Origin: a virus
Virus record (IMG/VR): IMGVR_UViG_3300010400_000003
Span: 1-64,000 of that record
Length of the DNA stretch: 64,000 nucleotides
Strand: one strand, 5' to 3'
Below the pieces are notes generated by a model, which saw nothing but the letters and a program-made list of their open reading frames with translations, searched no databases and was not told where the DNA came from. This document shows, one piece after another, positions 7,515 through 40,568 of this stretch (the first letter of the stretch is position 1; every line of letters starts with the position of its first letter). A program made the translations under genes and the position numbers.

Positions 7515-8207
7515 TCAGCCGTCCGCCGCCAGTCCCCACTTCTTGCGCAGATACGCCGTCGGATTGAAGTCGGTTGCCGGTCCTTGCGGCGCGTGTTTCC
7601 GCACCGCTTCAATCAGATGGTCGCAGCGGGCGTTCAGGCAGATGCCGGCCTTTAGATGGTTGCGCTCTAAGAAGTAGAACAGGTCCGCGTCAATCTCCCA
7701 CAGGTCAAACGCCTCGTCCCACATCCAGCCGTCGCGTCGCCGAAAGACGTTAACGCCGGCGGACGGGTTGCCCGTGTGGATGATGCGGCGCTCGTTCACG
7801 ATCCGGTGCTGGACGCACGGCATGTTCAGGTCGTCGAAGCTCCAGTTGCAGAGCGTGAAGTAATCCGGGTTCTCCCGCCAAAGATCCACGATGTTCTCCA
7901 GCCAGTTCGGAAAGTAGATCACGTCCGATGTGCCGTGGGCGATGAACTCGCCGGTCGTCGTGCGCGTGCCGTCGTTGAAAATCTTCGAGATGCTGAATGG
8001 GCCGTCCCACATTCGGACGCCGATGCCGAGCATCTCGCATTGGTTGCGGAGGCGGTCCAGCCGAACGCTGGGCGGGCTGTTGTTGATGTAGGCCCACACG
8101 CGCGCAGTCGTGGACGCCTGGCAGGTCCGCAACGCCATCACCGCCATGTGATAGGTTTCCTCGGTGGCGGTTGTTACCGGAATTATTACGTCGGCGTCGA
8201 GGCTCAT
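7515..8207 (-). CDS. GT2/GT-A glycosyltransferase
   Basis: DVIIPVT, INNS, FSISKIFNDG, FIAHGTSDVIYFPNWLE, WDEAF..WEIDAD. Confidence 0.85.
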   Translation of the reverse strand: MSLDADVIIPVTTATEETYHMAVMALRTCQASTTARVWAYINNSPPSVRLDRLRNQCEMLGIGVRMWDGPFSISKIFNDGTRTTTGEFIAHGTSDVIYFPNWLENIVDLWRENPDYFTLCNWSFDDLNMPCVQHRIVNERRIIHTGNPSAGVNVFRRRDGWMWDEAFDLWEIDADLFYFLERNHLKAGICLNARCDHLIEAVRKHAPQGPATDFNPTAYLRKKWGLAADG

Positions 8208-8476
8208 GTGTTGGATATTCTGGCGAGCACCTCCCTGAAGTAACTCTCCTGTTGCTCGGTCGGATTTTCTTGCAACTTTTTCAACAAGAAAATCATTTCG
8301 TTTTGCCTTACTTTTTCACAGTCAAGCCCGAGCCACTTCGCGCCCTCCCTGCATGAAAAGCACAATCCGCCTTCGTACACCAAAACCACTCTATGGCAAC
8401 AGCAGGAGCAGATTGGGTAGGCGCTGCCATTGCCATCATGCACCGGAGGCACAACGTATTGCAGCGTCGTGCTCAT
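8204..8476 (-). CDS. Cys-rich hypothetical protein
   Basis: CSCC..CFSC; ATGA overlaps on both sides. Confidence 0.6.
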   Translation of the reverse strand: MSTTLQYVVPPVHDGNGSAYPICSCCCHRVVLVYEGGLCFSCREGAKWLGLDCEKVRQNEMIFLLKKLQENPTEQQESYFREVLARISNT

Positions 8477-9384
8477 GGGATTTTGTCGAAGTCCTGTATT
8501 TTCATCCCGTCGAACCAATCCCTTTCAGGATGGCCGTTGTGACGCGGGAAAGGTCCACCCCGAAGAACCGCCGCCCGAATGGCGCGCAGATCCCAATGAT
8601 GCTCCGTGCGCTTGCGGACGCCGAACCTCGCCAGCGCCCCGTGCCCCTTGTCCTCCGCGTCGTTCGGCCATCGCTCCTTGCTGGAACGCCGCATGGCTGG
8701 CCCGCATTTCCCGGGAGTGCGGTCCTCGATCAGCTTCAGCCGTGGATCGTACTTGAGTGGAAATCCGTTGTTCTTGAGCATCAGGCCGAAAATGCAATCC
8801 TCCATCGAAAGGCTGTCCATCAGTTCCTCGTAGCCGTTTACCTGAAGCGCCCATTCGAGCGGCAGGGCGTTGACGCATCCGAACCACCAAGAGCCGGGCG
8901 CGTCAGCCAACGCCGACGACACGAGCGCGCGGTGATCGCGGCCTTGCGGAGAACGCGGGTCGCTACCGTCCAGCGTGCCCGGATCGGCTATGATGCCGCT
9001 CTCGACAACCATGCCGTGCCGCTTCTCGTAGCTGCCGCACACACCGTAGCCGCCGGCCATTGCGTCCTCGACGGCTGCGCGCCAGCCAGGAAGCAGGACG
9101 CCGCGATCGTCACAGAACATCACCCATTCAGTGCGGCAAAGGCAAATGCCGGTGTTCGCCGCGTTGCTCTTGGCCCACCACTGGTCTTTGGTCAGGCGGT
9201 GAGGACCCTGCCAGACTGTTGGTTTCGGCGGATGGAAAGTTGCGGCGTGCCAGCCTGCGTAATTCTCTAGGCCGAGACCGATGACGATAATCGGGCAATC
9301 ACTCTCACGCCGAACGCTGTCGTATAGCCACTGGAACTCCGGCTCGTGGCGGGCGGTCGTGAACACTATGGAGAACGCGCTCAT
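8473..9384 (-). CDS. GT2/GT-A glycosyltransferase
   Basis: AANTGICLCRTEWVMFCDD, VNGYEE, EDCIFG. Confidence 0.85.
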   Translation of the reverse strand: MSAFSIVFTTARHEPEFQWLYDSVRRESDCPIIVIGLGLENYAGWHAATFHPPKPTVWQGPHRLTKDQWWAKSNAANTGICLCRTEWVMFCDDRGVLLPGWRAAVEDAMAGGYGVCGSYEKRHGMVVESGIIADPGTLDGSDPRSPQGRDHRALVSSALADAPGSWWFGCVNALPLEWALQVNGYEELMDSLSMEDCIFGLMLKNNGFPLKYDPRLKLIEDRTPGKCGPAMRRSSKERWPNDAEDKGHGALARFGVRKRTEHHWDLRAIRAAVLRGGPFPRHNGHPERDWFDGMKIQDFDKIP

Positions 9385-10004
9385 TTCAGCTTTTGGAACA
9401 CCGCCCAATCGTCTCGCTCGGCTCCAGATGACTTCACGACTCGAAACAACTCCGTGCATCCTGCCGCAAGCAGTGTGTCCACCGATTTCGTCACTTCGCC
9501 GCCGTCCCAATGAAGGTCATCGAGCACGATGAACCCGCCGTCGCGGACGTTCGGCGCGAACCTCTGAACGTCACGCATCGCCTGCGCTCCATGATTTCCG
9601 TCTACGTGCAAGAGTCCTATTGTTGCTGGCGGCGTCACGTCATCCGACCGCTTGCGAATCAATCGTGTCACGTTCTGCAACGCCATGCGGTTCACTTGGT
9701 CAAGGAAGTAGTCGTGCATCCTTTTGTGATTCTCGGCGGACCCCCACCACGCCACGTTTGCCGGCCCCTGCCCCTCGATGGACGCCGCCGGCTCATATGG
9801 GTCAATCCCGATCACCATGCCGTGCCCGATCTCCCGGCAGGCCAGCGCCATCGGCAGGAGGCTCTTGCCGGACCAGACTCCGATTTCGACGATAATGTCC
9901 GGGCGCGTGCCGATCACTAGCGAGGCGAGCGTCTTGGCCTTGGCCTCAGTACACCATCCGTGCGGCGAGGCGCACACTTCGGCGATTTGGTCGTAGAGGT
10001 TCAT
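9381..10004 (-). CDS. class I SAM-dependent methyltransferase (Methyltransf_24-like)
   Basis: IVEIGVWSGKS, IGIDP, LHVDGNH, GGFIVLDD. Confidence 0.9.
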   Translation of the reverse strand: MNLYDQIAEVCASPHGWCTEAKAKTLASLVIGTRPDIIVEIGVWSGKSLLPMALACREIGHGMVIGIDPYEPAASIEGQGPANVAWWGSAENHKRMHDYFLDQVNRMALQNVTRLIRKRSDDVTPPATIGLLHVDGNHGAQAMRDVQRFAPNVRDGGFIVLDDLHWDGGEVTKSVDTLLAAGCTELFRVVKSSGAERDDWAVFQKLK

Positions 10005-10951
10005 GCGTCGAGCGGGCTTTTGACGGACATCGCTTCCGCGTGGCAATAGCCGATGGTGGTTTCGATTTGCTTGTGCCCCATCGCCTCCTGCAATGCCTTG
10101 AGGTTTGTCCCTCGGTCCAAGCAATGCGTGGCGTAGGCGTGCCGCAATTCATGGGGCAGCACCATGATGCCGAGCTTGCGGCGCGCTTCCTTGACGCCCT
10201 GCTGCACATTCGCTTCGTGCATCCGGTAGCGCACGATCTCACCCGTGCGCGGATGTTTGCAGGGATACCGTTGCGGGAAGAGCCAGGCCCAGGGCCAGGC
10301 GAAACGATACTCGGGATACTTCTTCGCCAGTTGTCCGGGAATCTCCAAAGGGAGGCGCGCCACGACATCGCGCTGCCACACGGCCCGCGCGTAATCCGTC
10401 TGCGCTTGAATTTCCTCCGTCAGTGAACACGGCAAGGCTACCACGCGATCCTTGCCGCCCTTCGCGCCTTTGAGCATCACGCGACCATTCGTCAAGTCCA
10501 CATCCTTGATGCGCAGATTCAATGGCTCGCTCACACGCAAACCGCAACCGTAAAGCAGGCGCACAATCAGGTTGACCGGATAACCTCCCACGTCGCGCAC
10601 GGCGGCGATCAGGCGGCGCGTTTCGTCCACGGTGGGCGCGTGGCGAAGCTGGATCGGGCGGCTCTCCCGTAACGCCTGGACGTTCTTCAACTCGACTCCG
10701 AGCACGTCTTTGTAGAAGAACAGGATGGCATTGAACGCCTGATTCTGTGTGCTGGCCGAGACGTTTTGATTTAGCGAGAGTTCAGTGAGAAACCGTTCCA
10801 ACTTCTGTTCACTGGTTAACTCCGTCGGTAGATGCTTCAGGGCGCGGATGTAGCGGGCAAGCCAGTGCAAATAGGTTTGCTCCGTAGCAATGGCCTTGTG
10901 TTGGCGGCGGATAACGGCGCGAGTGCGCTCAATGGCTTCAATGGGGTTCAT
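10001..10951 (-). CDS. intI: integron integrase (IntI-type tyrosine recombinase)
   Basis: VSASTQNQAFNAILFFY, LLYGCGLRVSE, KGGKDR, integron-specific insert LAKKYP..W.WAWLFP, HELRHAYATH, MGH..TTIGYCH, SPLD end. Confidence 0.92.
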   Translation of the reverse strand: MNPIEAIERTRAVIRRQHKAIATEQTYLHWLARYIRALKHLPTELTSEQKLERFLTELSLNQNVSASTQNQAFNAILFFYKDVLGVELKNVQALRESRPIQLRHAPTVDETRRLIAAVRDVGGYPVNLIVRLLYGCGLRVSEPLNLRIKDVDLTNGRVMLKGAKGGKDRVVALPCSLTEEIQAQTDYARAVWQRDVVARLPLEIPGQLAKKYPEYRFAWPWAWLFPQRYPCKHPRTGEIVRYRMHEANVQQGVKEARRKLGIMVLPHELRHAYATHCLDRGTNLKALQEAMGHKQIETTIGYCHAEAMSVKSPLDA

Positions 10952-10969
10952 GCCGTCAATATACGAAAG

Positions 10970-10993
10970 GCCATAGCTTAATCAATGTTCGAC
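10970..10993 (+). other. putative attI site, crossover G|TTCGAC at 10987
   Basis: GTTCGAC is the exact complement of attC1 R'' GTCGAAC; 36 bp from the intI start. Confidence 0.75.
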
Positions 10994-11244
10994 AAAAGCG
11001 CCTTCGCACGTTTCATCATGTCCCGATGTTTTCCGGTTGGCGGCTCATCCACAGCCATTTCGTATTTCTCCATCGCGGCCACCATTTCAGAACACAGCGC
11101 CTCAAGCGCGTCGTGTCGCTTCACCTTCCGATGCCACTCGCGGTAGAGTTTGCCACTCAGCCGAGCACCCGATCCCGGTTTTGCGATGTTGTCAAAGTTG
11201 TTGCTCATAATTTGTCGAACCATGCGCTTCAGCGAACGGCGCAT
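10978..11244 (-). CDS. cassette 1 hypothetical protein (alternative start 11208)
   Basis: ORF antisense to attC; stop codon lies in attI. Confidence 0.7.
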   Translation of the reverse strand: MRRSLKRMVRQIMSNNFDNIAKPGSGARLSGKLYREWHRKVKRHDALEALCSEMVAAMEKYEMAVDEPPTGKHRDMMKRAKALLSNID

Positions 11245-11303
11245 GAGTGTTTCAGTTTGCAGGCGGCGTCTCTGGTGCGCCGTCTCTGAGCTTGGTGTTC
11301 GGA
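11214..11303 (+). repeat. attC1
   Basis: GTCGAAC-5nt-GCTTCAGCGAACGGCGC...GCGCCGTCTCTGAGC-5nt-GTTCGGA. Confidence 0.88.
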
Positions 11304-11608
11304 GACTCGGCTTGCATGATGACTCGCGCAAAAGTGCGCAGGTTGAATTCCACCGTTTCTTGTGTCGTCCATAGGCGGTCATCAGCAGCCCATTCTTTCA
11401 CAGCCTTTTCCTGTGCAGCGTTTAGGACTATCGGGACTGCCCTGATTGAGCCGTCTGGCTGGAGTGCGATTGTAAGCGGTTCGCCGCTCGCCAGCATTCG
11501 TTCCAGTTCTTCGATGGTAGGTCTTGGTCTTTCGACCGTCTCCGAACCAGTCGCTGGAGCGAATCCGGCGGGGCGCTTTGATTGTTCAGAGTCAGTTTCC
11601 ATATTCAT
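11252..11608 (-). CDS. cassette 2 hypothetical protein
   Basis: starts in attC2 loop, ends in attC1 loop. Confidence 0.75.
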   Translation of the reverse strand: MNMETDSEQSKRPAGFAPATGSETVERPRPTIEELERMLASGEPLTIALQPDGSIRAVPIVLNAAQEKAVKEWAADDRLWTTQETVEFNLRTFARVIMQAESPNTKLRDGAPETPPAN

Positions 11609-11653
11609 GTCTTTCGTTGTTCGCCGCCGGATTCGCTCAGCTTATCGTTAGGT
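11541..11653 (+). repeat. attC2
   Basis: TCCGAAC-5nt-GCTGGAGCGAATCCGGCGG...CCGCCGGATTCGCTCAGC-5nt-GTTAGGT. Confidence 0.9.
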
Positions 11654-11973
11654 GCTTTCGGTGCAGGTATCTCTTTCCACCCTTCTCCTGTCGGGCAGTC
11701 TTTCGTCTCGCAATACCAGCTTCCGCCACGACCGTTGCATTGAGGGCACGCAACCCAGTCGCCTGGGTCGTAGAAATTCGGGTCGTCCTCGTAAGCGTCA
11801 TAATATCCGTCCTCGCACCCCAGACCGCCACATTCGCCCCACTCCATTTCGCAGTGGCACACAGCGCATATCATCGCACCATCAGACCCACGATACATCG
11901 CACCTAACAAATCCTTGGAAGCAACAGCCGGGGGCTGGGACTGTTGCTGTGGCGTTTCAATTTTTGAGTCCAT
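11605..11973 (-). CDS. cassette 3 Cys-rich (DnaJ-like Zn-finger) protein
   Basis: CAVC, C..LGC, CPQCNGRGG; starts in attC3, ends in attC2. Confidence 0.75.
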   Translation of the reverse strand: MDSKIETPQQQSQPPAVASKDLLGAMYRGSDGAMICAVCHCEMEWGECGGLGCEDGYYDAYEDDPNFYDPGDWVACPQCNGRGGSWYCETKDCPTGEGWKEIPAPKAPNDKLSESGGEQRKT

Positions 11974-12009
11974 AATTATTCGCGGCTGTGCTTCAAGTCA
12001 GTGTTAGGT
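11902..12009 (+). repeat. attC3
   Basis: ACCTAAC-5nt-CTTGGAAGCAACAGCCG...CGGCTGTGCTTCAAG-5nt-GTTAGGT. Confidence 0.9.
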
Positions 12010-12314
12010 GAGCCTAGCGGCAGCACTCCTTCTTCGGGGTATTCATCGAAGTAGGCGATGTGCTTGTGAGGCGGCACTTGGCATTTCTGTTCTTCATCCC
12101 AGACGCCTTTCTTCGGCCATGCGGCGATTTTGATTTCCGTCTCGCGCTCCTCGACCTTTTCACTGGCGGTCGGCTCTTGGACTACCAGCCCGCAGAATTG
12201 TGCGAGGTCGCGGATTTCATCTATTGTGAGCGTCAGATGCGGCTCACCTAACCCGTCAGTGGAGCGCGACGTGGCGGGGCTTTCCGGCATAGTTGCTTGA
12301 TCGGCGTCACTCAT
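11976..12314 (-). CDS. cassette 4 hypothetical protein
   Basis: starts in attC4, ends in attC3. Confidence 0.75.
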   Translation of the reverse strand: MSDADQATMPESPATSRSTDGLGEPHLTLTIDEIRDLAQFCGLVVQEPTASEKVEERETEIKIAAWPKKGVWDEEQKCQVPPHKHIAYFDEYPEEGVLPLGSPNTDLKHSRE

Positions 12315-12374
12315 TTTATTTCCTTCTGTGAGCCGCAGGCGTCAGCCGCCACGCCGCTCACTTTGGCGTTCGGC
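12246..12374 (+). repeat. attC4
   Basis: ACCTAAC-5nt-AGTGGAGCGCGACGTGGCGG...CCGCCACGCCGCTCACT-5nt-GTTCGGC. Confidence 0.88.
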
Positions 12375-12640
12375 TCTGTCGTCTCCCAGAAGTCCATGTG
12401 GAAGATCAAGCCCGTTGACGTGCCTTTGGTGATTATTTTGACCATTGCTTTGTCGCGCTTTCCAAATCCGATGACGATGCCTTCGGAAGCTCCGGGATTT
12501 GCCCTGCCCCTGCCCTTGTTCATGCCTTGACTGATTGCCAAAGGCGTCACCTTTACACGCATCCCCCATTGGAATTTGTCACGAGCCGAACCATCCGATG
12601 CAGGCGACGTGGCGGGCGCTGGTAGTTTTAAGTCATTCAT
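12311..12640 (-). CDS. cassette 5 hypothetical protein (possible SH3-like barrel)
   Basis: starts in attC5, ends in attC4; FQWGMRVKV..EGIVIGF pattern. Confidence 0.72.
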   Translation of the reverse strand: MNDLKLPAPATSPASDGSARDKFQWGMRVKVTPLAISQGMNKGRGRANPGASEGIVIGFGKRDKAMVKIITKGTSTGLIFHMDFWETTEPNAKVSGVAADACGSQKEIK

Positions 12641-12691
12641 AAATTCGGAGGCGCGGGTTAATCGGCCACGCGCCTGATCTGGTCGTTAAAA
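12585..12691 (+). repeat. attC5
   Basis: GCCGAAC-5nt-GATGCAGGCGACGTGGC...GCCACGCGCCTGATC-5nt-GTTAAAA. Confidence 0.88.
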
Positions 12692-14358
12692 TTCAAATGC
12701 GATTCCGTCACCTTCACCAAACACGCCGCCGTGTCGTTCACCCCGACGGACACCATCCAGCCGTCGTCTTGCGCGACCGCGCCGTAGGGTATCACGACGT
12801 TTGGCTTCCAATGCGCAGCCCCGCTGCGCCACTCGTGGCCGCTCAGAATCGGATGGCTGGAAACGGCCAGCATCTCGAACGGCGGTTCGCTGTTCATCAC
12901 GTACGCCCCCATGTAGTAACGCACGTCGCGCGGCTTGTCGCTGATTGGGATTTGACTATGGAAGAACCGCAGCCACTTCCCGCGATACGGTATCGGAGGC
13001 GTGCCGCCGCGGATTTGTCCCCACGCCCAGGAAAGCGACGGCGTCCGCCATTCCTCATCTGGCTTGCCATCGCGGATCCTCACAACGACATGCTCGGGCG
13101 AACAGGCGTAAATGAAATGCGTGCGGCCTTCCAGGTCGAAGAACACCCAATTCTTTTCGAGCGCACTGCCGTCGTTGTGGCCATATTCAGGCCGGCAGAA
13201 TTCCGCCAGTTCGGCGCCGCTGTCCGAGACTTTGATTTCTCCGTAGGCCATGACGCAGCGGAAACGATTGCCAGCCACGCCCGCCACGACAAACGAGCCG
13301 AACAGGCGATCATCACGGGTCCACAGTCGCATGTCCTCGACGCTGGACGTGCTCAAATCGGACGGCATCCGCAGCGGCAAATGCCTGATGGCGGTCGCCG
13401 TTGCCGGGTCGAGTTGCACAATCGCCAGTTGCGTTTTCCACGAGCCGTGCGGGTGATGGCGGTAGGTGGACCACAGATTGCCGTTCCACTGAATGAGCGA
13501 CGGGTTGTAGCCGTGCGCTTCCAGGCCCATGATGGGACGCTGCGACGGTCGCCGCACGCCGGACAATACCTGCCGGGCCATGTGCAAAATCTCCGGCTTG
13601 CGAGCGCTGTATTGCGAGTACCGGCAATGAAGCTCGAACCGCTTTTGCCAAGGCGTGCCGTTCCACGGCGTTGGCAGGTCGCGGCTCAACGCTATGACCG
13701 GCACTTTCGACGCCGCGCTCAAATGCAGCGGCAGGCTGTCGCCGGCAATCAGCAGTTCCGCGCGGTCCATCAATCGTATCAAGTCGTAAGGCTTTTCCGC
13801 TCTCACTTCAGATAAGTCGAGCGCGCGACACTTTGGCAACGCTTCCTGAACGGCCTGAATCAAATCGTCCTTTTCAGGGAAAGGCGATGCTACGCCGCTG
13901 AGAGCCACGAGGATTATTTGCAAATCCACGTTCAGATGCTTCTCCACTAGCGCAGCCTCGCGCAACACATCCCGCCGGTCAAACTCCAACGGCAACCGCC
14001 GCCAATCGTTTGGCCGTCCGAGGTTGGCCCAAATCTCGTGGACAAAGCTTTCCCCAACCGGCTTGCGCGTGCCGGCGGACTCGACGGGATTCACCCAGCG
14101 AATCATTGAGCCGTTCGACTGCTCTTTGATCCATGACACCGCCCGATGCACTGTGTCGCCATCCTGGCCGCGCTTCCACGTCTCGGGGTAAACGATCGGG
14201 GTGACGTAGCTCACGCCGTCCAAGATGTCCTCGTAGTTCTGCGCGACGACGATGCTCGTCTTTTCGCCGGTCGCCCGAAAGCGGTCCAGCGCGAACGGCA
14301 GGACGATGCACAAATCCCCGTAACTGCCCAAGCAGACGATTTGCTCGCGGTTGCTCAT
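12658..14358 (-). CDS. GT9-like glycosyltransferase fused to GH130/GH43-like beta-propeller
   Basis: LGSYGDLCIVLP and LIAGDSLPLHLSAA (GT9-like); YNPSL, EDMRL, EKNWVFF, RGGTPP, VVIPYG (propeller). Confidence 0.8.
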   Translation of the reverse strand: MSNREQIVCLGSYGDLCIVLPFALDRFRATGEKTSIVVAQNYEDILDGVSYVTPIVYPETWKRGQDGDTVHRAVSWIKEQSNGSMIRWVNPVESAGTRKPVGESFVHEIWANLGRPNDWRRLPLEFDRRDVLREAALVEKHLNVDLQIILVALSGVASPFPEKDDLIQAVQEALPKCRALDLSEVRAEKPYDLIRLMDRAELLIAGDSLPLHLSAASKVPVIALSRDLPTPWNGTPWQKRFELHCRYSQYSARKPEILHMARQVLSGVRRPSQRPIMGLEAHGYNPSLIQWNGNLWSTYRHHPHGSWKTQLAIVQLDPATATAIRHLPLRMPSDLSTSSVEDMRLWTRDDRLFGSFVVAGVAGNRFRCVMAYGEIKVSDSGAELAEFCRPEYGHNDGSALEKNWVFFDLEGRTHFIYACSPEHVVVRIRDGKPDEEWRTPSLSWAWGQIRGGTPPIPYRGKWLRFFHSQIPISDKPRDVRYYMGAYVMNSEPPFEMLAVSSHPILSGHEWRSGAAHWKPNVVIPYGAVAQDDGWMVSVGVNDTAACLVKVTESHLNFNDQIRRVAD

Positions 14359-14558
14359 TCCTTCACAAGTTTGATGCTCTCCGCGCTCACCCACGCTGCG
14401 CCATCGCCGTGGCTCGGGTGGATGCGAACCTCGTCCCGTCCGTAGCGTTGTTGCACGGCCTCGACAATCACAGGAATCGCAAGCGCGCCGTCGGATCGCA
14501 ATTTGGGCCGCCAAATCGCTTTCCTCCAAACGTATTTTTCCAGTTCAGGCTTGGTCAT
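14355..14558 (-). CDS. hypothetical protein
   Basis: ATGA-coupled ORF. Confidence 0.65.
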   Translation of the reverse strand: MTKPELEKYVWRKAIWRPKLRSDGALAIPVIVEAVQQRYGRDEVRIHPSHGDGAAWVSAESIKLVKE

Positions 14559-14767
14559 GGAATCGTTTCAGGCTTTGGGTCCACCAGCGCGGCCCGCTTG
14601 CGGCGCACGTCGTTTCGCAATCCCTCGCAAACAATCCGCTCCGCAGCGTCCGCCACAGAGTTTCCGTAAAGCCCAAGCGTGACAAGCCTCGAAAGGTGTT
14701 CGTGAACGCTCTTGCTCGTGGTAATCGTGATGCGCACCGTGCTCTTTTTAGCGGCTGTTTGGCTCAT
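14555..14767 (-). CDS. ribbon-helix-helix regulator
   Basis: VRITITTS beta-strand, HLSRLVTLGLYGNSVADAAERIV. Confidence 0.7.
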   Translation of the reverse strand: MSQTAAKKSTVRITITTSKSVHEHLSRLVTLGLYGNSVADAAERIVCEGLRNDVRRKRAALVDPKPETIP

Positions 14768-14807
14768 GGTTGTGCTCCGTTCGGTTCATGTTTGATCTCG
14801 CGCGCTC

Positions 14808-14836
14808 AGACTATGCCTGCGGTCGCAGGGTGTCAA
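14808..14836 (-). promoter_or_regulatory. promoter with palindromic operator
   Basis: TTGACA-17-TAGTCT; CCTGCG-GT-CGCAGG at 14816-14829. Confidence 0.75.
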
Positions 14837-14886
14837 CTGTAATCTCCCGCTGCGCGCCCCAATCGCTTGGAGCGCGGCGCGGAGGG

Positions 14887-15228
14887 TTACTTGCCAGCGG
14901 TGCCAATTCTCACGGCGACGTGATACGTGCCTGGATCGCCAAAGTCTCCCGTAGCACATTCCGATGTGCTTTTGTTTTCGTTGTCAATCCGTGCGTCGAG
15001 CATCCGGCCCTCGATTCGGTTGACGCCTTCCGTGCAATCGTCAGCCCGGAAGCGGGTGAAATGACACCAGTAGTCAGCGCCATCGCCTTCGGTGGCGCGC
15101 ACGATTGTTACCTCCCCGCCGGGAAACCGCACGGAGACATGGGCAGGCTCGCAAGCTTTCGGGTTGCCGGTGATAATCAGCAAGGCGTGATCCGAGCCGT
15201 TGCTTTGCAATTCAAATCGGTTTTTCAT
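14887..15228 (-). CDS. hypothetical early protein
   Basis: ORF with A/C-rich leader. Confidence 0.65.
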   Translation of the reverse strand: MKNRFELQSNGSDHALLIITGNPKACEPAHVSVRFPGGEVTIVRATEGDGADYWCHFTRFRADDCTEGVNRIEGRMLDARIDNENKSTSECATGDFGDPGTYHVAVRIGTAGK

Positions 15229-15290
15229 AAATGTTTTGGGTTAAGAGGTAGGCGGGCGCGCACCACACGCGCCCGCCACCATCAACCGCG

Positions 15291-16733
15291 TCAGGCACCG
15301 ATCGCTTCTGCTTGCCTGTCGAGGAAGGCATCTTCCTGCGCTTGGGCGTAGGACGCCGTAGCGTCGGCCTTGCCGCAGTCACATTCCGCCGCGCCATGCA
15401 GCCGTTGCGCGCACGCTGGCCCGTGGCTTTCGTCCTCGGGGTTCGCCAGAACGCCCGCAATCAGGCAGGCCACGCTCCACGCACCTTCGGAGAATTTCTT
15501 GTACCAGACCTTGGACCGCATGGACCAGCGAAACCCGTTCGCCTTCAGCCGGTCAATGATTTCTCGCTCAGGCTTGGCTGGGAAGGAGACTTCGACGCCG
15601 CCCAATTCGAGGTTGCGGCGAACTGTGCCGGTCGTGCCCGCCTGGCCGTCCTGGCCGCCGTCAGCTTGCACGGCAGACCGCTCCGGCACTTCGAGGACCA
15701 GCTTGTACCAGTTCTCGGGCACATTCAGCCCGCCCTCGACTTCCTTGTTCCATACAACGCCCACAATCTTCGCGCCCGGCGGGAGTTCGGTCGCATCCAT
15801 CACTTGCCGCGCGGCAGTCGTCGCGCCCATGTAAGAGCCGTTCTCGAAGCGCGGTAGCCGGCAGTTCCAAAGTTCTTCGGTCGCCGGGATTTCTTCGAGC
15901 GCCAGAATCCAGCGCGCAACGTCGTTTTGGATCTTCATGGTTTCGTGATTCTCGCCGTAACCGCGGGAAACTGACGTGTAGGTAACACGGCCCAAGACGC
16001 GATCAACCGCCGTGCCGTAGTTGGAGCGATCGTACTCGTGCGAATCGGTCATGCCGTCAAAATGCCCGTCCTGATACTTGCCGACAATCTCACGGACTTG
16101 CTTCTCGGTCGGCCCATTCAGCCACGATACGCGCATGGAGTTGTGATCTGAGCGCACGGAGAATCGCGCGTAAGGCCACTTTTGAACCAGTTCGCTCTTG
16201 CAGTTCGCCGCAGCGCGCGGTCCGCCCCGCATGGCGTCCGCCGGAAGTGCCCACGGATACTTTGCCCGCAGTTCGGCCGCAATGCGGTCGGTTTCGATGC
16301 CGGCCAAACGCGACTTCTCGGCGCGATCCGCTTCAGCCTTCTGGCGTTCCGCCTGGTTCTCCGTGTCCTGTTCCGCCGTGATGCGGTTGTCAACGACGGG
16401 CATGTTGCGGCTCAGTTCGGGCAAAGCCGCCTCGATCTCGGTGCGGATTTGTGCCGCGTTAGCCTTGCTCACGGTCCAGTTGTATTTTTCGCCAATCGCC
16501 TTTTGCACGGCGGCAACGTCCTCGCGGCGATGGACGCCAAACAGTTCATTGAAACAGGAAGTGTGCTCCTGGCCGCCGATGACACCGGAGATTTCCTTCC
16601 GGTCGTTGTGCGCCATCCGCAGTTTGCCCAGCGCGCCGTTTACGGCGTTGACTTGAATCTTGCCCGGCGGGTTGGTCGTGTCGGCGGCCCACTTGCGCGG
16701 CGCCGTCGTGGTTGTGGTTTCGGTCGTGTTCAT
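15291..16733 (-). CDS. LPD29-domain polyvalent-associated protein
   Basis: AAANCKSEL..KWP.ARFSVRS...VSWLNGPT..V..IVGKYQ.G.FDGMTD; C-terminal GVEVSFPAKP...LKANGFRWS. Confidence 0.75.
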   Translation of the reverse strand: MNTTETTTTTAPRKWAADTTNPPGKIQVNAVNGALGKLRMAHNDRKEISGVIGGQEHTSCFNELFGVHRREDVAAVQKAIGEKYNWTVSKANAAQIRTEIEAALPELSRNMPVVDNRITAEQDTENQAERQKAEADRAEKSRLAGIETDRIAAELRAKYPWALPADAMRGGPRAAANCKSELVQKWPYARFSVRSDHNSMRVSWLNGPTEKQVREIVGKYQDGHFDGMTDSHEYDRSNYGTAVDRVLGRVTYTSVSRGYGENHETMKIQNDVARWILALEEIPATEELWNCRLPRFENGSYMGATTAARQVMDATELPPGAKIVGVVWNKEVEGGLNVPENWYKLVLEVPERSAVQADGGQDGQAGTTGTVRRNLELGGVEVSFPAKPEREIIDRLKANGFRWSMRSKVWYKKFSEGAWSVACLIAGVLANPEDESHGPACAQRLHGAAECDCGKADATASYAQAQEDAFLDRQAEAIGA

Positions 16734-16815
16734 GTTTTTCCTTTGGTTGATGTTTGATGGTTTATGCGGTTGCCCGCGTCCGCTCCCCGCCGGCATGACG
16801 GGGAGCGTTGCGCGA

Positions 16816-17094
16816 TCAACTCTCAGTCCAGATGTACTCAATCGCGGAATGGCTAATGTAGTAACACGGTCGCCCGTCGTAATGGCTTTTGTGGAAACTC
16901 ACGGCAAAGTCATCGGCCAAGTGTAAGCCTCGCTCGGCGCCCACGGCATAACTCATGTCGTGCGCCCACTGGTGAATGTCCCGGCAGTGTCGGCGCAGGG
17001 TCGCAAGCGTCACGTCTCGCGCAGCGTCCACCATCGCGTGGATTTTCGCCGCCGTGCTGTTCACGCAGCAAGTTGTGTAAGCGAATCGTTTCAT
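16816..17094 (-). CDS. hypothetical early protein
   Basis: coupled ORF. Confidence 0.65.
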   Translation of the reverse strand: MKRFAYTTCCVNSTAAKIHAMVDAARDVTLATLRRHCRDIHQWAHDMSYAVGAERGLHLADDFAVSFHKSHYDGRPCYYISHSAIEYIWTES

Positions 17095-17663
17095 CGCCCA
17101 GCCTCCTCGTTGTCGTGGTCAATGATCTCGACTTCCACGCCCGGCGGGCAGGTCGTCACTTCGGCGCAGCCGCCCTGGACTTCGACGATGACGCGCACAA
17201 GCGGGAGCATCGGATGGAGAGGCTTGCCCGCCACGAGTTGCCGCGCCGTGCTCTGAATGTGGCACAGCGCCCCGCACTCGGGACACTCGCCCGCCGGCAT
17301 CGGCTCGCCCGGGTCCACGCGCAAGAAGATGTCTTTGATCTCGGCCAACTCCAATTCGGAGCTAACCTTTCCGCAGTTCGGGCACGGCTCGCACATAGCC
17401 GGCTCGTTGGGCAGAGTCGGGCGCAGCGGGCGAACGGCGTCAGCTTGGGGTGTGATGGTCGTCGGCTTGTGCTCCAGCGCGAACTTATCCGCCCGCGCCC
17501 GCGTTTCAACTTCCTCGTGCCTTGCTCCGATGAACGGCACCCAGCCGCCCGCGGTCTGGACGAGGAATTGACAGCCGGCATCCGCTTCGCCGTCGTATCC
17601 GCAGACGTAAGGCCCGCGAACCGTGCCCGGTGGGAATGGTTTGTATTCAGTTGTTTCTTTCAT
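17091..17663 (-). CDS. Zn-ribbon hypothetical protein
   Basis: CPNCG...PGEPMPAGECPECGALC. Confidence 0.7.
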   Translation of the reverse strand: MKETTEYKPFPPGTVRGPYVCGYDGEADAGCQFLVQTAGGWVPFIGARHEEVETRARADKFALEHKPTTITPQADAVRPLRPTLPNEPAMCEPCPNCGKVSSELELAEIKDIFLRVDPGEPMPAGECPECGALCHIQSTARQLVAGKPLHPMLPLVRVIVEVQGGCAEVTTCPPGVEVEIIDHDNEEAGR

Positions 17664-17806
17664 GTGGTGTATGGGTTGATGGTTGAGGTTCGGGACCGCC
17701 GGTCAAAGCAGAATGTAGCAAAGCAGCGCAATATCCGCCGCGAAGTTCAGCGCCAGCGCGAACACCCAAAGCTGGGTATCGTCGCCGACGCCAGTGTATT
17801 TCAGGT

Positions 17807-18082
17807 TCATGGTTCGGAGATTGCACCGATGAAGTCAGGGCGGGGCAAAACGCCAGTGCGGGCAAGCTCGGCGTCAAACTTCTTCTCATGGCAAGCGAGA
17901 CAGATGCCACCGGGGAAAACGGCGAGCGGGTCAACTTGGGTTCCGCATTGGCGGCAGCACGGGGTTAAGTTCGGGTTTGGTGCTTCTCCCCTTGCGAGTC
18001 GCTCCGTCTCAAGTTGACGGGCTTTCGCCCATATCCGGCCCATGCGGGCGTTGTATCGTTCGGCGCTGGTTCTTGTGTTCAT
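17807..18082 (-). CDS. hypothetical early protein
   Basis: CRQCG, CLAC. Confidence 0.6.
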   Translation of the reverse strand: MNTRTSAERYNARMGRIWAKARQLETERLARGEAPNPNLTPCCRQCGTQVDPLAVFPGGICLACHEKKFDAELARTGVLPRPDFIGAISEP

Positions 18083-18154
18083 GGTGTGGTTGAGTTTGAT
18101 GACGCGGGATAATCCCCGCCCACTGCCCCGCCGAAGCGAGGCAGGGAGGGAGAA

Positions 18155-18343
18155 TCACACCGCGTCGCAATACGCTTGGAAGCCTTCGCCAGTTTTCAGA
18201 AACAGCGCACACCGTAAAGCGCGCTCATTGCTCCACCCCATCTCCGTGAGGTAATCAACGATTTTGGTTTGTGAGAATCGCCGCGCCAGTTTGCGCGCCG
18301 TCGTGCAATTCCCGTTTATCAGGTTTTCGATCATGTTTTCCAT
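18155..18343 (-). CDS. hypothetical early protein
   Basis: ORF in co-oriented cluster. Confidence 0.55.
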   Translation of the reverse strand: MENMIENLINGNCTTARKLARRFSQTKIVDYLTEMGWSNERALRCALFLKTGEGFQAYCDAV

Positions 18344-18368
18344 AGTTTCGAGATTGAGTGAACGGCGG

Positions 18369-18767
18369 TTAGGATTTGCAGCGATGGACTCGGCAAATGT
18401 CGTTGTCGCCGATGTTCACGCCATGCCAGCGCGAGCCGTCGAAGTTGAACCAAACGTCCTCGCGTGTTCCGGCGATGTTGTGCCTCGATTCGCGGCAGCA
18501 AGTCACGGGGAAGTTTGTCGAGCCTTCCCATGTGCCGACGTGAATCCGCGCACCGATGGTGCGGCGATACAGGACAGCGCGACCGCTCGCTTTCATGGCC
18601 TCGACTTCCAACTCTGCCAGCGCGTGGTTGTGCGCGTCAATTTCGGGCTGGCTCAACTCGCCAACCTTGCCAGTTGGCGCAAAGGCGCCGTGGCCGGTGA
18701 AGTTGAATATGTAACCGATCGGCGAGCCGTCGGCGGTTTTGATCGTGGTGTTTTGTGGTGTTTTCAT
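18369..18767 (-). CDS. hypothetical early protein
   Basis: MKTPQNTT start after A/C-rich leader. Confidence 0.65.
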   Translation of the reverse strand: MKTPQNTTIKTADGSPIGYIFNFTGHGAFAPTGKVGELSQPEIDAHNHALAELEVEAMKASGRAVLYRRTIGARIHVGTWEGSTNFPVTCCRESRHNIAGTREDVWFNFDGSRWHGVNIGDNDICRVHRCKS

Positions 18768-18843
18768 TGCGTTTTTGGTTGATGGTTTCAGTTGTGCGGA
18801 CTCCCGCGCAGATGGGCGCACACGGCGCCCACCTCCGCGAACG

Positions 18844-19059
18844 TCACGCGGCGATTGCAACGGGTTGGCCCGCGACCATGCCGTAGTAAAGCTCTGTCCC
18901 GGCGGGAATGTGCGCTGGCTTGGTCCGCACAGCCTCAGCAATCGCAGACTCGCGGTCCCATGCGTAAATGTAAACCGGATGCCACATGCGCCAAGTCAGG
19001 CGATGCTCGGTGAGAACGGGGTTGTTTCGTACTTCAGACGGTGGTGTTTTCGTTTTCAT
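18844..19059 (-). CDS. hypothetical early protein
   Basis: first gene after the 19093-19120 promoter. Confidence 0.6.
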   Translation of the reverse strand: MKTKTPPSEVRNNPVLTEHRLTWRMWHPVYIYAWDRESAIAEAVRTKPAHIPAGTELYYGMVAGQPVAIAA

Positions 19060-24640: not shown

Positions 24641-26275
24641 TCAGTCGGCATGGGGACTCCTTGGCTCGTCGGCGTTTTCAATTATTCGCTCGTTGATCGT
24701 CATTTTGCTTCCGAAGAAGTTGCACGGGATGGTGAGTCCGGCGCCGCCCTTGGTGCTTTTCAGAACCTTAACCGTCAAGAGCGTCGGGTCTTTCTCAGTG
24801 CGCCATGCTCCAATGACCAGGCCCGCCGAGTTCTCCAATGCGCCGGAGTCTTTGCCGGAGTGGAGCGTGATTTCGTCGTCACCGGATCGGCCAACCTGGG
24901 ACGCGATCACGATGATCGTTTTGGTCATCTTGGCGATCACCTTCAAGCCCTCGGCGGCGTCGCTGGTTTTCTGGTATCGGTCGCCTCGCCCTTGAAGTAG
25001 CTGAACGTAATCCACGAGCACCAACACGGGCTTGCATCCGATTTTCAACTCGCTGCGAATTATCAGGTGCTCCAAGTCCTCCAGCGTCAACCTCGACTCC
25101 GGGCAGACGAACAGGTTCGGGAACTGCCTCATCACCGCGTCTCGCCCGAACGACCCACCACCGCGATATTCCGTCTCAATGTCCACGCAGTCGAGGCCGG
25201 CGCGGATGGCGAAGAACCGCTCGTAAACCAACTCGATTGGAAGCTCCATCTCGAACAGTAGGGATTTCAGGTCGGAGCGCACGGCGAGATTTTGAAGCAT
25301 GGCGGTCTTACCGGCGCCGGTGTCCCCGAGCAGGAGCACCAGTTCTCCTGGAATTATCGAACGGATTTTCCCCCGAAAAGATGGCAGCCAGTTCCCAAGA
25401 TCAAGCGACACCACGCGCGACTGGTCCACCTGCTTCTTGTACATCGGCTCGATGTCGGCCATTGAGTAAACCGGCAAGCGATGGCCTCCGACGTGCGGCA
25501 CGGCCGCCGCGGAGAGTTCGTCCAGAGCGTGCTTCGCGTCCAGCCCCACCTTGAACGTGGCGATGTAGTCGGAAACGTCCTTGACGGTGGATATTTTCAC
25601 GAACCTCACCGACCTCGCCTTGGTCGCCACGGAATCGTAAACCAACTGGATGTGCTTCCTACCCGCATCGTCGTTGTCGCCGCACAGGATGATTTCCTTG
25701 CCGGACAGTCGCTCCGTGTAGGCGTCGAGCCACTTTCCAGCCCCTCCGACGTTGCACGTCGCGCAGAAACCCAGCAGGGCCAAGCTGTCGGCGTCCTTCT
25801 CCCCCTCGACGATCCATACCGTCTCCGATTTGATAACCTCTGGCAGCCGATACAGCACCCGCTCGACGCCATCCATGCTCCAAACCCACTCTCCACCTAC
25901 GGCGTGGCGCTGGCGGAACGACTTAGGTTTCAGCCGTATGGCCTGGTAAACCTCAACCCCCAAGGCGTCGGTGTAACTGTAAACCTTCTCGATCACCGGC
26001 TTTTCCTTTGGCGCCACAGGAAGCTGCTGGCCGTTGGCGTGCCTGTTAGTTGGCGCACGCTCCCCGGCGAACAGGTCGCGCAAGGAAAGCCCCATCGCTC
26101 CAACAACCGCGTGCGCCGTGCATCCGGCGAAGCATTTCAGGAGGACCCCGCCATCAGTCCCGCGACCGATGGAGAGGGATGCCGAGCCATCGTCGTGCGC
26201 TGGGCACTTCGCCATCACGCCTTTGGCCGTCTTGGTGGACTTGTCGAACCTGGATATGAAATCCTCGTAGGTCAT
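24641..26275 (-). CDS. primase (Zn-binding + TOPRIM) / DnaB-like helicase fusion
   Basis: CPAHDD..SL...CFAGC; VEGEKDAD; DND; GDTGAGKT; VDYVQL; SQ. Confidence 0.9.
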   Translation of the reverse strand: MTYEDFISRFDKSTKTAKGVMAKCPAHDDGSASLSIGRGTDGGVLLKCFAGCTAHAVVGAMGLSLRDLFAGERAPTNRHANGQQLPVAPKEKPVIEKVYSYTDALGVEVYQAIRLKPKSFRQRHAVGGEWVWSMDGVERVLYRLPEVIKSETVWIVEGEKDADSLALLGFCATCNVGGAGKWLDAYTERLSGKEIILCGDNDDAGRKHIQLVYDSVATKARSVRFVKISTVKDVSDYIATFKVGLDAKHALDELSAAAVPHVGGHRLPVYSMADIEPMYKKQVDQSRVVSLDLGNWLPSFRGKIRSIIPGELVLLLGDTGAGKTAMLQNLAVRSDLKSLLFEMELPIELVYERFFAIRAGLDCVDIETEYRGGGSFGRDAVMRQFPNLFVCPESRLTLEDLEHLIIRSELKIGCKPVLVLVDYVQLLQGRGDRYQKTSDAAEGLKVIAKMTKTIIVIASQVGRSGDDEITLHSGKDSGALENSAGLVIGAWRTEKDPTLLTVKVLKSTKGGAGLTIPCNFFGSKMTINERIIENADEPRSPHAD

Positions 26276-27081
26276 ATCGCAACGCTCTTTCCCTTGCGGA
26301 TTTCGTGTGGTTGAGTTTTTGGCTTGGGGGGAGACATCGGGCGACCGTCTGATTCCCACTTGGTTTTCACCCTGACCATCACCGACCGAGCGTTGTGGAT
26401 CGGCCTTTGGTTGTGATCCCTCCATCCGCAGCCCTCCATTTCGTGGAACCAGTCAACCGCCTTCCACTCAGCCAACCCGATCATTACGGCGGTCGCCTTC
26501 ACCTCGGAGAGAGACATGCGCGAAACGACTTCCGGGAACGCTCTCTCACTCCCAGCAGTACTTGGTTCTGGTTCTGGTTCTGGTTTGGTCAACGTAACGT
26601 TGGACGTAACGTTCGACGTTACGTTGTTTGTGTCCAAATCTTGGACGGTTTTACCGTGCTTTTGTGGATTACTAAGTTCTCGGCCCTTTTTTTCCACGCC
26701 AACGTCGTTACCGACGTTCAACGTAACGTTCCTCTTAACGAGCCTCGCGGCCGTGGCGGCGGATGTCTGGTTGTATCGGTCGGTGAGCCTTTCGAGGGAT
26801 AGATTCCACTCCTTCCTGGCCCGCTTCTGATGCCATTTGCCTGATTCAAGAACGAAAAACTTGTCGTTGTCGAAGATCGTTCCCTTTGTTCTGGCCCAAG
26901 TCCCGAGTTCGCACCGGCACAGGTTTCGCATTTGCTCGTCGTCGTCTGGTATTCCCTCGCAATGCAGGTGGGACCAGTAGAACCAAACGCAGCGAAGATA
27001 TTTGAAGCCGAGAACCTCTCCCATCATTTCAACGGCGGAGAAAAAGTCGTCGCCGTAGAATGGCATGTGGGAATCCGGCAT
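26272..27081 (-). CDS. replication initiator, DUF1376/YdaU-like
   Basis: MPFYGDDF..., IPDDDEQM, WHQKRA, NVT repeats, PEPEPEP linker. Confidence 0.75.
   Translation of the reverse strand: MPDSHMPFYGDDFFSAVEMMGEVLGFKYLRCVWFYWSHLHCEGIPDDDEQMRNLCRCELGTWARTKGTIFDNDKFFVLESGKWHQKRARKEWNLSLERLTDRYNQTSAATAARLVKRNVTLNVGNDVGVEKKGRELSNPQKHGKTVQDLDTNNVTSNVTSNVTLTKPEPEPEPSTAGSERAFPEVVSRMSLSEVKATAVMIGLAEWKAVDWFHEMEGCGWRDHNQRPIHNARSVMVRVKTKWESDGRPMSPPKPKTQPHEIRKGKSVAI
26590..26730. repeat. iteron-like ACGT(A/T)ACGTT repeats (putative ori)
   Basis: copies at 26590, 26603, 26615 and 26719, inside the initiator gene. Confidence 0.55.
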
Positions 27082-30273: not shown

Positions 30274-31053
30274 TCATTTTCCTTGGGCTTCTTTCCGTCG
30301 GAGCATTTGATCTAACTCTGGATATTTGGTTGCTGGGATTTCTTTGAACGATGCCGCACCAGCGAAGCGCAAAAACGCACCGTGATTTGAATTGGTTTCG
30401 TTGACGCGCCGTTCCAGTTCAAACGCCTGCTCCGCAGAAACCTTTTCGTCGAGGTTTCCTTCGAGCGCGGCATCGCTGTCAATTCCGACGACGACAATGT
30501 TCAGACAGTCGCACAGGGCGCCGCGCTTGGCGTAGGAGTGCGCCGAACCATCCGCCTGTGATTCAGAGCAACCCGGAGGCCCTTGACCGATACGAACCGA
30601 ATACGGATTGCTCCGCTCGTGGCCGCCCTTGTGCATGAGCGTGCAAATCTTCGTGATCTTGCCTTGCTGGAAAGCGCCCTCCGAGAAAGTGTAGGTGAAT
30701 CCGTGTTGATGGCAGAGCGGTTTTGCCTGGGAGTCAATTTCCTCGAACGGCGCAAACGACGAGCGCATTTTGCCGTTCCGGTCGGGAATAACTTTGGTCG
30801 CCTTGATTCTCGGCGTGTCGGCCTGGAGGGCGATGAAGTCCTTGGTGAACTCGCGTTTGGCCTGATCGGCGTCCATGTCGCGCTTGAGCGCCACCAGTTC
30901 GCGAAGCGCGGCGACGTTCTCGCTCGTGACGCCGCGCTCGATCACGGATTGGATCATGTCGAGCGCGCTCGGTTCGCGTTTGGCGACTGCGCTGGATGGC
31001 GGCGACTGCGGCACGAGTTCGGCTTCGATGGGAGTTGAGGTTTCAGGTTTCAT
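30274..31053 (-). CDS. erf: ERF-family single-strand annealing protein
   Basis: FAPFEEI..., L.HKGGH, QADGSAHSYAKR, D.DA. Confidence 0.85.
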   Translation of the reverse strand: MKPETSTPIEAELVPQSPPSSAVAKREPSALDMIQSVIERGVTSENVAALRELVALKRDMDADQAKREFTKDFIALQADTPRIKATKVIPDRNGKMRSSFAPFEEIDSQAKPLCHQHGFTYTFSEGAFQQGKITKICTLMHKGGHERSNPYSVRIGQGPPGCSESQADGSAHSYAKRGALCDCLNIVVVGIDSDAALEGNLDEKVSAEQAFELERRVNETNSNHGAFLRFAGAASFKEIPATKYPELDQMLRRKEAQGK

Positions 31054-40516: not shown

Positions 40517-40568
40517 GCGCCCAAAATAGCCCTTGCGCGGGGCGGGCGGCAAGTCTTAGAGTCGCGGC
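40517..40568. promoter_or_regulatory. overlapping divergent leaderless promoters
   Basis: plus strand TTGCGC-18-TAGAGT-6-GTG; minus strand TTGCCG-18-TATTTT-6-ATG. Confidence 0.55.

Follow-up and report, generated by a model that had tools for sequence, protein, structure and literature searches.

The window, that is the whole 64,000-nucleotide stretch of viral DNA analysed here (positions 1 to 64,000 of IMG/VR record IMGVR_UViG_3300010400_000003), carries an integron whose five gene cassettes lie next to its integrase gene, intI. The record corresponds to a complete virus of 75,285 bp (CheckV completeness 100) whose direct terminal repeats measure 123 bp. The locus is laid out as follows, where ORF stands for open reading frame, attI is the integron's own recombination site, the attC sites are those of the cassettes, and site scores are from the structural scanner described below:

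9381 to 10004, minus strand: S-adenosylmethionine (SAM)-dependent methyltransferase (Methyltransf_24 in Pfam; DNA methyltransferase family in PHROGs)
10001 to 10951, minus strand: intI, integron integrase, 316 aa
10952 to 10996, minus strand: attI
10988 to 11297, minus strand: cassette 1 (310 bp), with ORF1 from 11208 to 10978, 76 aa
11214 to 11303, plus strand: attC1 (score 9.5, 15 paired bases)
11298 to 11647, minus strand: cassette 2 (350 bp), with ORF2 from 11608 to 11252, 118 aa
11541 to 11653, plus strand: attC2 (score 16)
11648 to 12003, minus strand: cassette 3 (356 bp), with ORF3 from 11973 to 11605, 122 aa
11902 to 12009, plus strand: attC3 (score 11; extra G and A in L'')
12004 to 12368, minus strand: cassette 4 (365 bp), with ORF4 from 12314 to 11976, 112 aa
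12246 to 12374, plus strand: attC4 (score 11)
12369 to 12685, minus strand: cassette 5 (317 bp), with ORF5 from 12640 to 12311, 109 aa
12585 to 12691, plus strand: attC5, the last site, also found by the scanner
12658 to 14529, minus strand: resident upstream gene with weak glycosyltransferase-9 and GH130-like matches in Pfam

The intI product matches the NCBIfam model TIGR02249 'integron integrase' with 275.5 bits, above the cut-off of 265, in a single stretch that covers profile positions 2-313 of 315, and it contains the Pfam domains Phage_integrase and Phage_int_SAM_4. Its closest solved structure is VchIntIA of Vibrio cholerae (2a3v), to which residues 11-306 align in one stretch. The catalytic residues R139, K164, H267, R270, H293 and Y302 are invariant in an alignment with IntI1 and other integron integrases. 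The additional segment that is specific to IntI proteins is present and aligns without gaps to IntI1 and VchIntIA.

The predicted attI directly adjoins intI. Its GTT core (10987-10989) lies at a distance of 36 nt from position 10951, where the ATG of intI begins, and the insertion point would be G/TT between 10987 and 10988 on the plus strand (the slash marks the crossover), which is AA/C on the coding strand. A 10-nt core is complementary to the R'' box of attC1. In 13 loci of the integrase clade described below, the sequence before AA/C is variable and the sequence after it is conserved, consisting of (A)GTGATT and then a GTTCGTATAT-like box; these motifs lie 20-60 nt before the intI start. 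The intI-side half of attI provides the first cassette gene with its last residues, Asn-Ile-Asp, and its stop (10978-10980). A sigma-70-like match (TTGATT-16-TATATT, 10985 to 10958, minus strand), the sole such match within 9000-19000, lies inside attI, faces intI and coincides with the clade-conserved motifs, which may be the intI promoter, integrase-binding boxes, or both.

The attC sites were located with our own structural scanner, which searches for an AAC followed by a 5-nt spacer, for L arms that pair and are anchored at the spacers, and for a second 5-nt spacer followed by GTT, and which recovered the known attC sites of a class 1 integron and of Shewanella phage M16-3. On the whole 75,285-bp genome it found exactly five sites, all within 11214-12691; shuffling the genome 30 times (dinucleotide-type) yielded 0.2 sites on average and in no case the one-arm signature of extra bases. 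Each attC has 15-18 paired L-arm bases, and at all five the extra bases lie solely in the 5' arm of the plus strand: the first is a G (T in attC1) at L'' position 3-4 and the second, at position 10-12, is an A in 4/5 sites. The R'' box of every site is 100% complementary over 9-12 nt to the core that opens its cassette (5/5 pairs). In attC1, R'' spans 11214-11220 and R' 11297-11303, the extra bases in L'' are T and A, and the loop holds the stop of ORF2 (11252-11254). attC2 has a perfect 15-bp L stem with an extra G in L'', and its loop carries the overlap of the ORF3 stop with the ORF2 start (ATGA, 11605-11608), just as the loop of attC4 carries that of the ORF5 stop with the ORF4 start (ATGA, 12311-12314). 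The R' box of attC5 (GTTAAAA) has no partner further on, and the genome holds no further site. An Rfam 15 search of the whole window and of 10800-13000 gave no attC match, chance matches only.

By its integrase, its clade-conserved attI and its attC geometry the locus is thus recognizable as an integron. The initial annotation, made from the letters alone, had described a complete integron with antisense cassette ORFs: an IntI-type integrase, a GTT core 36 bp upstream of it, five attC hairpins of R''-5nt-L''...L'-5nt-R' geometry with unpaired bases in L'', R'' boxes that exactly complement the core opening each cassette, and five ORFs that all read towards attI on the strand of intI. The profile score, the scanner and the database relatives of ORF2 to ORF5 now bear out each of these elements.

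Polarity of the attC sites and strand of the cassette genes

A single rule underlies integron biology: the integrase picks the bottom strand of attC, and promoterless genes therefore come to point away from the Pc promoter. The strand that is recombined can be told from the hairpin: on the bottom strand, the arm facing that strand's 5'-AAC-3' is the one that carries the extra-helical bases, at positions 16 and 23/24 (Nivina et al. 2016, PMC5027507). The minus strand of the window has its extra bases on the equivalent arm, at positions 15/16 and 22-24. By this rule the minus strand is therefore the bottom strand and the plus strand the top one. We calibrated the assignment on a class 1 integron (dfrA12-gcuF-aadA2), the Shewanella phage M16-3 and the chromosomal 10-site array L095. 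The arm with the extra bases is the one nearer to intI in all three calibrators and likewise in the window; the calibrator genes are on the top strand and the window genes on the bottom strand.

The five cassette ORFs are all on the minus strand, the strand of intI, and read towards attI and intI. Database relatives were found for the four cassette proteins searched (ORF2, ORF3, ORF4 and ORF5), and the minus strand is therefore the coding strand. The textbook layout has the genes on the attC top strand, read away from intI from Pc; here 5/5 genes are on the bottom strand. Judged from the calibrated hairpins and these relatives, the polarity of the attC sites relative to intI is canonical and it is the cassette genes that lie on the bottom strand.

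Could the polarity have been misread, so that the minus strand is in fact the top strand, the genes have the textbook orientation and intI merely sits at the far end of the array? The complementarity of R'' and R' is symmetric under reverse complementation and does not decide the matter alone, G, the usual extra base of the bottom strand, is found on the plus strand, and internal Met codons follow just after R'' in ORF1, ORF2, ORF3 and ORF5. Yet the extra bases are on the arm that makes the plus strand the top strand, the relatives of the cassettes diverge at R' and not at R'' (see below), the conserved attI adjoins the start of intI, and ORF4 has no start codon after R''. We rejected a model with reversed polarity, in which the genes would start at the internal Met after the core, on the last three of these grounds. 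As for the G, the first extra base on the top strand is also G in the canonical array L095. An odd base identity therefore does not signal reversed polarity, and we discarded the first extra base as a polarity marker. A misread polarity is thus already contradicted, and we consider it extremely unlikely. We also note that the purine extra bases (G and A) of the window attC sites sit on the top strand.

Exchange points and reading frame

The relatives of the cassette proteins show where exchange has taken place. ORF3, a cysteine-rich protein with several Cys-x-x-Cys pairs, has 12 relatives with 57-77% identity; in the protein alignment the similarity runs from the N-terminus encoded by the attC arm through Ala-Pro-Asn and ends there, and the DNA of the cassette compared with two other viral contigs breaks off sharply immediately after AAC. 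ORF2 has 115 relatives, and the closer ones that were aligned lose similarity at Ser/Pro-Asn, with unrelated tails beyond. Among the 168 relatives of ORF4 conservation extends from about query residue 27 to 102-105, next to the Pro-Asn at 103-104. ORF5 has a single relative (P0130). The attC arm encodes residues 1-26 of ORF5, 23 of which are identical in the two proteins; along the body identity falls to roughly one half, and after a return of agreement at Glu-Pro-Asn-Ala little is shared. In the relatives of ORF2, ORF3 and ORF5 the part encoded by R'' and L'' has remained together with the body, and it is the tails that are unrelated and differ in length.

On the coding strand the R' core reads CCN-AAC, which gives the Pro-Asn pair, and the canonical crossover there is AA/C. 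As similarity ends after CCN-AAC while the R''/L'' residues stay with the body, exchange occurs at R' and not at R''. The relatives of these three proteins break exactly at the crossover, and this confirms the cassette borders and the polarity without recourse to the geometry rule. Searches of Pfam and PHROGs with the five cassette proteins gave no match.

The gene boundaries fit this arrangement. ORF1 begins 6 nt past R'' and ends with a stop that attI provides. ORF4 must start inside attC4, since there is no start codon after R''. The resident upstream gene (623 codons) reads the R' of attC5 as Phe-Asn and receives its last 8 codons and its stop from cassette 5 (frame f0, with 619 codons upstream and 9 downstream). 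In the window AAC is in frame at 6/6 junctions, namely the five R' cores and attI. Across the clade, at 49 sites in 16 loci, AAC is in frame with a long upstream gene at 36, and a further 8 of the 49 end the gene with a TAA inside the core, exactly at the crossover (together 44/49). The controls were 40 sites in 20 integrons outside the lineage. There the three bottom-strand frames are represented 16/9/15 and are for the most part open over short distances; it is on the top strand that the long genes terminate, in many cases with a TAA that lies within R''. The frame preference cannot be put down to avoidance of stops, since a stop in the core is possible in just one of the three frames. As a separate observation, many cassette genes of ordinary integrons (L095, L093, L014 and others) end with TAA in the R'' core (xTAAC), which mirrors the TAA in R' of the clade.

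How such an array might work can be described as follows. The chemistry would be that of an ordinary integron, with hairpins formed by the bottom strand and attI x attC insertion beside intI. In the direction of the mRNA each cassette consists of an attC first and then an open-ended gene. The preceding gene has its final 8-19 codons and its stop in R', the spacer and L'; the hairpin loop carries the stop/start junction, and L'', the spacer and R'' code for the N-terminus of the cassette's own gene. This gene continues to the next crossover, read as Pro-Asn, and borrows its tail and stop from what lies downstream, be it the next cassette or attI. Because the crossover preserves the frame, any order of cassettes would give intact genes, and because the genes ride on the bottom strand, new cassettes would join the operon at its 3' end, just before intI. 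The R' of attC5 would represent the original outer half of attI, for which no partner is expected, and the empty ancestor would have had an attI overlapping the end of the resident upstream gene.

A further step would be to regard the attC sites as translated, frame-locked linkers, in which the crossover lies in an Asn codon or after a TAA, so that reordering keeps both the frames and the stop/start coupling. The recombinogenic bottom strand is the non-template strand of the operon, and transcription would thus expose it as single-stranded DNA, tying the shuffling to phage expression. In bacterial integrons shuffling is tied to SOS-induced intI and to single strands derived from replication or conjugation; in the phage lineage, if this reading is true, it would be tied to phage gene expression. 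We put the proposal forward tentatively, as a serious possibility that falls somewhat short of an even chance.

Lineage, cassette traffic and phage context

Relatives of the integrase are encoded by 11 viral contigs with 38-73% identity. In the viral contigs of the clade, intI is preceded by 1-6 attC sites that show the signature of the window sites, and the genes are on the same strand. A quick maximum-likelihood tree places the window in a clade of 17 rows (9 viral and 8 metagenome-assembled genome (MAG) contigs) with a Shimodaira-Hasegawa-like approximate likelihood ratio (SH-aLRT) support of 100, outside of which fall the other 73 sampled integron integrases including IntI1; the sample was picked by similarity to the query and covers part of the integron integrases. 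Taking one genome per species, the closest integrase matches (55-63%) are on short contigs of Verrucomicrobiota MAGs and the next are at 41% or less. The lineage occurs in soil and freshwater phages and is probably linked to Verrucomicrobiota. The sole public run that contains the DNA of the window is a soil metagenome, probably its source.

Comparison of these loci speaks for cassette traffic. Within the surrounding 20 kb only the integrase is common to the window and its relatives, and although the integrases of the relatives compared are 56-73% identical, cassette content is different in every locus; DNA cytosine methyltransferases are recurrent cargo in two of them (L001 and L003). The ORF3 cassette recurs in other viral arrays, whose DNA similarity to the window is limited to it. 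In one viral contig (L098) this cassette lies between attC sites of the same polarity in an array of at least 8 sites, and in another (L100, whose sequence is the same as that of L099) it starts in a site of the same polarity and other sites follow. In a further locus, L011, a 289-bp cassette between two R' cores is present twice with 100% identity. The second copy (15027-15350; compared with L011:7809-8098 and L011:9951-9988) lies 5 kb beyond intI, joined to a 35-nt copy of the inner half of attI, and both junctions are exactly AA/C. It has the appearance of either a recent event mediated by the integrase or a small second insertion site. In yet another contig (L104), a 675-bp stretch that ends at an attC is duplicated with 99.9% identity (7994-8668 and 9537-10211), which fits a cassette duplication.

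These comparisons indicate that the cassettes are mobile units exchanged at the crossover. A comparison of cassette content and order among related phage contigs had been proposed as a check on the initial annotation; the content indeed differs by locus, and the ORF3 cassette turned up in the arrays of other phages. The same annotation had suggested a phage system for acquiring and shuffling accessory genes that is transcribed from the phage operon. The comparisons and the minus-strand operon lend support to this proposal as a whole; acquisition in this particular phage is what we infer from them.

The integron is part of a long run of genes on one strand. In a crude ORF map the minus-strand ORFs run for about 17 kb, starting near 17.1 kb and reaching 160, and include the array and intI. 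Start and stop codons overlap not only at the two junctions within the array (ORF3/ORF2 and ORF5/ORF4) but also at 10001-10004, where the TGA stop of intI overlaps the ATG of the methyltransferase (ATGA). Given the minus-strand gene run and these overlaps, expression from a phage transcript instead of Pc is the natural reading, with a predicted operon that would run from about 17.1 kb via the array, intI and the overlapping methyltransferase to 160. The methyltransferase is followed by further genes on the same strand (7515-9384, minus) of no assigned family, and because these genes come after intI the integron appears embedded in a block of accessory genes.

That the carrier is a phage, as initially proposed, is clear from the terminal repeats and from the genes found elsewhere in the genome, which encode a tail-fibre protein and a virion structural protein in addition to the following:

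24641 to 26425: primase-helicase
30274 to 31053: Erf-type annealing protein
38900 to 40552: large terminase

A single ORF of 3,415 codons (about 10 kb) occupies 61162-64000 of the window and continues to genome position 71409 (L116).

The complete phage genome encodes no tyrosine recombinase other than that of intI, and a serine recombinase was likewise not found. This could mean that IntI serves mainly as the integrase for lysogeny, with attI acting as attP, the phage inserting into attC/attG-type sites of the host and the array arising as a side product, and indeed the integrase of a relative (63% identical) is found on a 928-kb bacterial contig (L026). However, the ORF on that contig has only 282 aa against a match of 316 residues, and the gene therefore looks truncated; moreover no evidence of the attL/attR type came to light. 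Cassette traffic is needed to account for the conserved cassette architecture and for the frame rule whatever other role the enzyme has, and both roles are compatible with each other. We regard lysogeny as the main function of the enzyme as quite unlikely.

Several points weigh against a working-type integron with its genes on the reversed strand. The site and polarity calls come from our own scanner instead of the IntegronFinder covariance model. At 5/5 attC sites the top (plus) strand is predicted to form the more stable fold, by 0.7-2.6 kcal/mol, which runs counter to the published trend, and the first extra base of the bottom strand is C where the usual base is G. Around intI residues 240-246 the integrases of the clade have VRYRMH or VRWHML-type residues in place of the RRHH of IntI1, Shewanella phage, Rctr41k and L008 (alignment A2), and on this evidence strand handling could differ in detail within the clade. 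For ORF2 and ORF5 both long and short N-termini are possible; the shorter form of ORF2 from the gene caller has 81 aa, consistent with a start at Met38 (P0015). A search for close phage relatives through the flanking 623-aa and 303-aa genes returned distant matches or none. Finally, the contigs of the sole public run, probably the source, gave no sign of excision or rearrangement and no alternative or informative junctions; two joints that had been reported from this run belong to the integrase contig of another organism. Apart from its bearing on this question, the VRYRMH-type replacement may relate to the differing first extra base in the clade.

The lack of junction variants in the only available run is also what would be expected of a frozen relic, in which the cassettes were assembled long ago and are now ordinary operon genes, with intI retained for another reason or decaying. 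That the cassettes have no known function and that the array is grafted onto a resident gene would fit such a relic too. However, intI is full length with all its catalytic residues and the IntI segment, and R'' still matches the opening core perfectly over 9-12 nt, a match that drift would erase. Array content is wholly different among relatives whose integrases are 56-73% identical, and in L011 there is the identical cassette copy at a second site. A relic thus seems unlikely. Taken together, our results probably describe a working-type integron platform inside a phage operon with the gene strand reversed. They establish its anatomy, its polarity, the coding strand, the exact points of exchange and the sharing of cassettes among phages; present activity in this phage, transcription from an upstream phage promoter and translation of the borrowed tails are inferred.

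Relation to known integrons and meaning

The locus shares with classical integrons (class 1 and V. cholerae) an IntI-family integrase with the additional domain, an attI just upstream of intI, attC sites with R and L boxes, unpaired 5-nt spacers and two extra-helical bases about 6 bp apart, a crossover at G/TT, equivalent to AA/C on the bottom strand, and an R'' that matches the core opening the cassette. It differs from them in that its genes occupy the bottom strand and point towards attI and intI, that each attC precedes its own gene and, judging from the sequence, is translated, that genes of the lineage lack their own stop or end with a TAA inside R', and that the first extra base of the bottom strand is C. 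A new cassette would come last in the operon of the window where it comes first in a classical integron, and no divergent Pc would be required.

In inverted-integrase integrons of the Treponema denticola type intI is transcribed towards attI (PMC3607928, PMC4889954). As in this type, intI and the cassette genes of the window have the same direction; in contrast to it, the intI of the window reads away from attI, its start lying 36 nt off, and the genes are reversed relative to attC, whereas those of the Treponema type keep the textbook strand. We observed a locus that looks like the Treponema type in Virus Rctr41k (L013, KX853513; 4680-10100), where six attC-like sites with sense-strand genes lie downstream of an integrase annotated as 'xerD integrase-like protein'; the record does not label it as an integron. 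The window is also distinct from CALINs, clusters of attC sites without an integrase, since its first attC has an intact intI at a distance of 262 nt.

Complete integrons (three of them) and CALINs in phages have already been published by Qi et al. 2023 (PMC9892861), who describe two of the three, those of Vibrio anguillarum and P1, as fragments of integrons from host chromosomes or of class 1. The window resembles the integrons of that study in that the parts are in phage genomes and that DNA methyltransferases occur as cargo (here in the relatives L001 and L003). The published ones are in temperate phages and that of Shewanella M16-3 has the textbook divergent layout; the window, in contrast, belongs to a separate integrase clade and has reversed genes, of which we found no mention in that paper. 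Literature searches found no description of an integron layout with genes on the bottom strand. Phage-borne integrons are thus not new; the reversed gene layout is one for which we found no published description.

The integron literature states that genes in the opposite orientation have never been observed. A whole lineage of integrons, with an integrase clade of its own, now has its genes on that strand, its chemistry being canonical in other respects, and its recombination sites double as coding sequence. The integron platform would thus be more adaptable than thought, and surveys that assume the textbook gene strand may misdescribe such arrays. With intI, attI and five attC sites the window offers a complete and compact set of parts, suited to tests of strand choice, of frame-preserving exchange and of folding driven by transcription. 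For the phages of this lineage, the integron would represent a dedicated device of their own for the exchange of small accessory genes.

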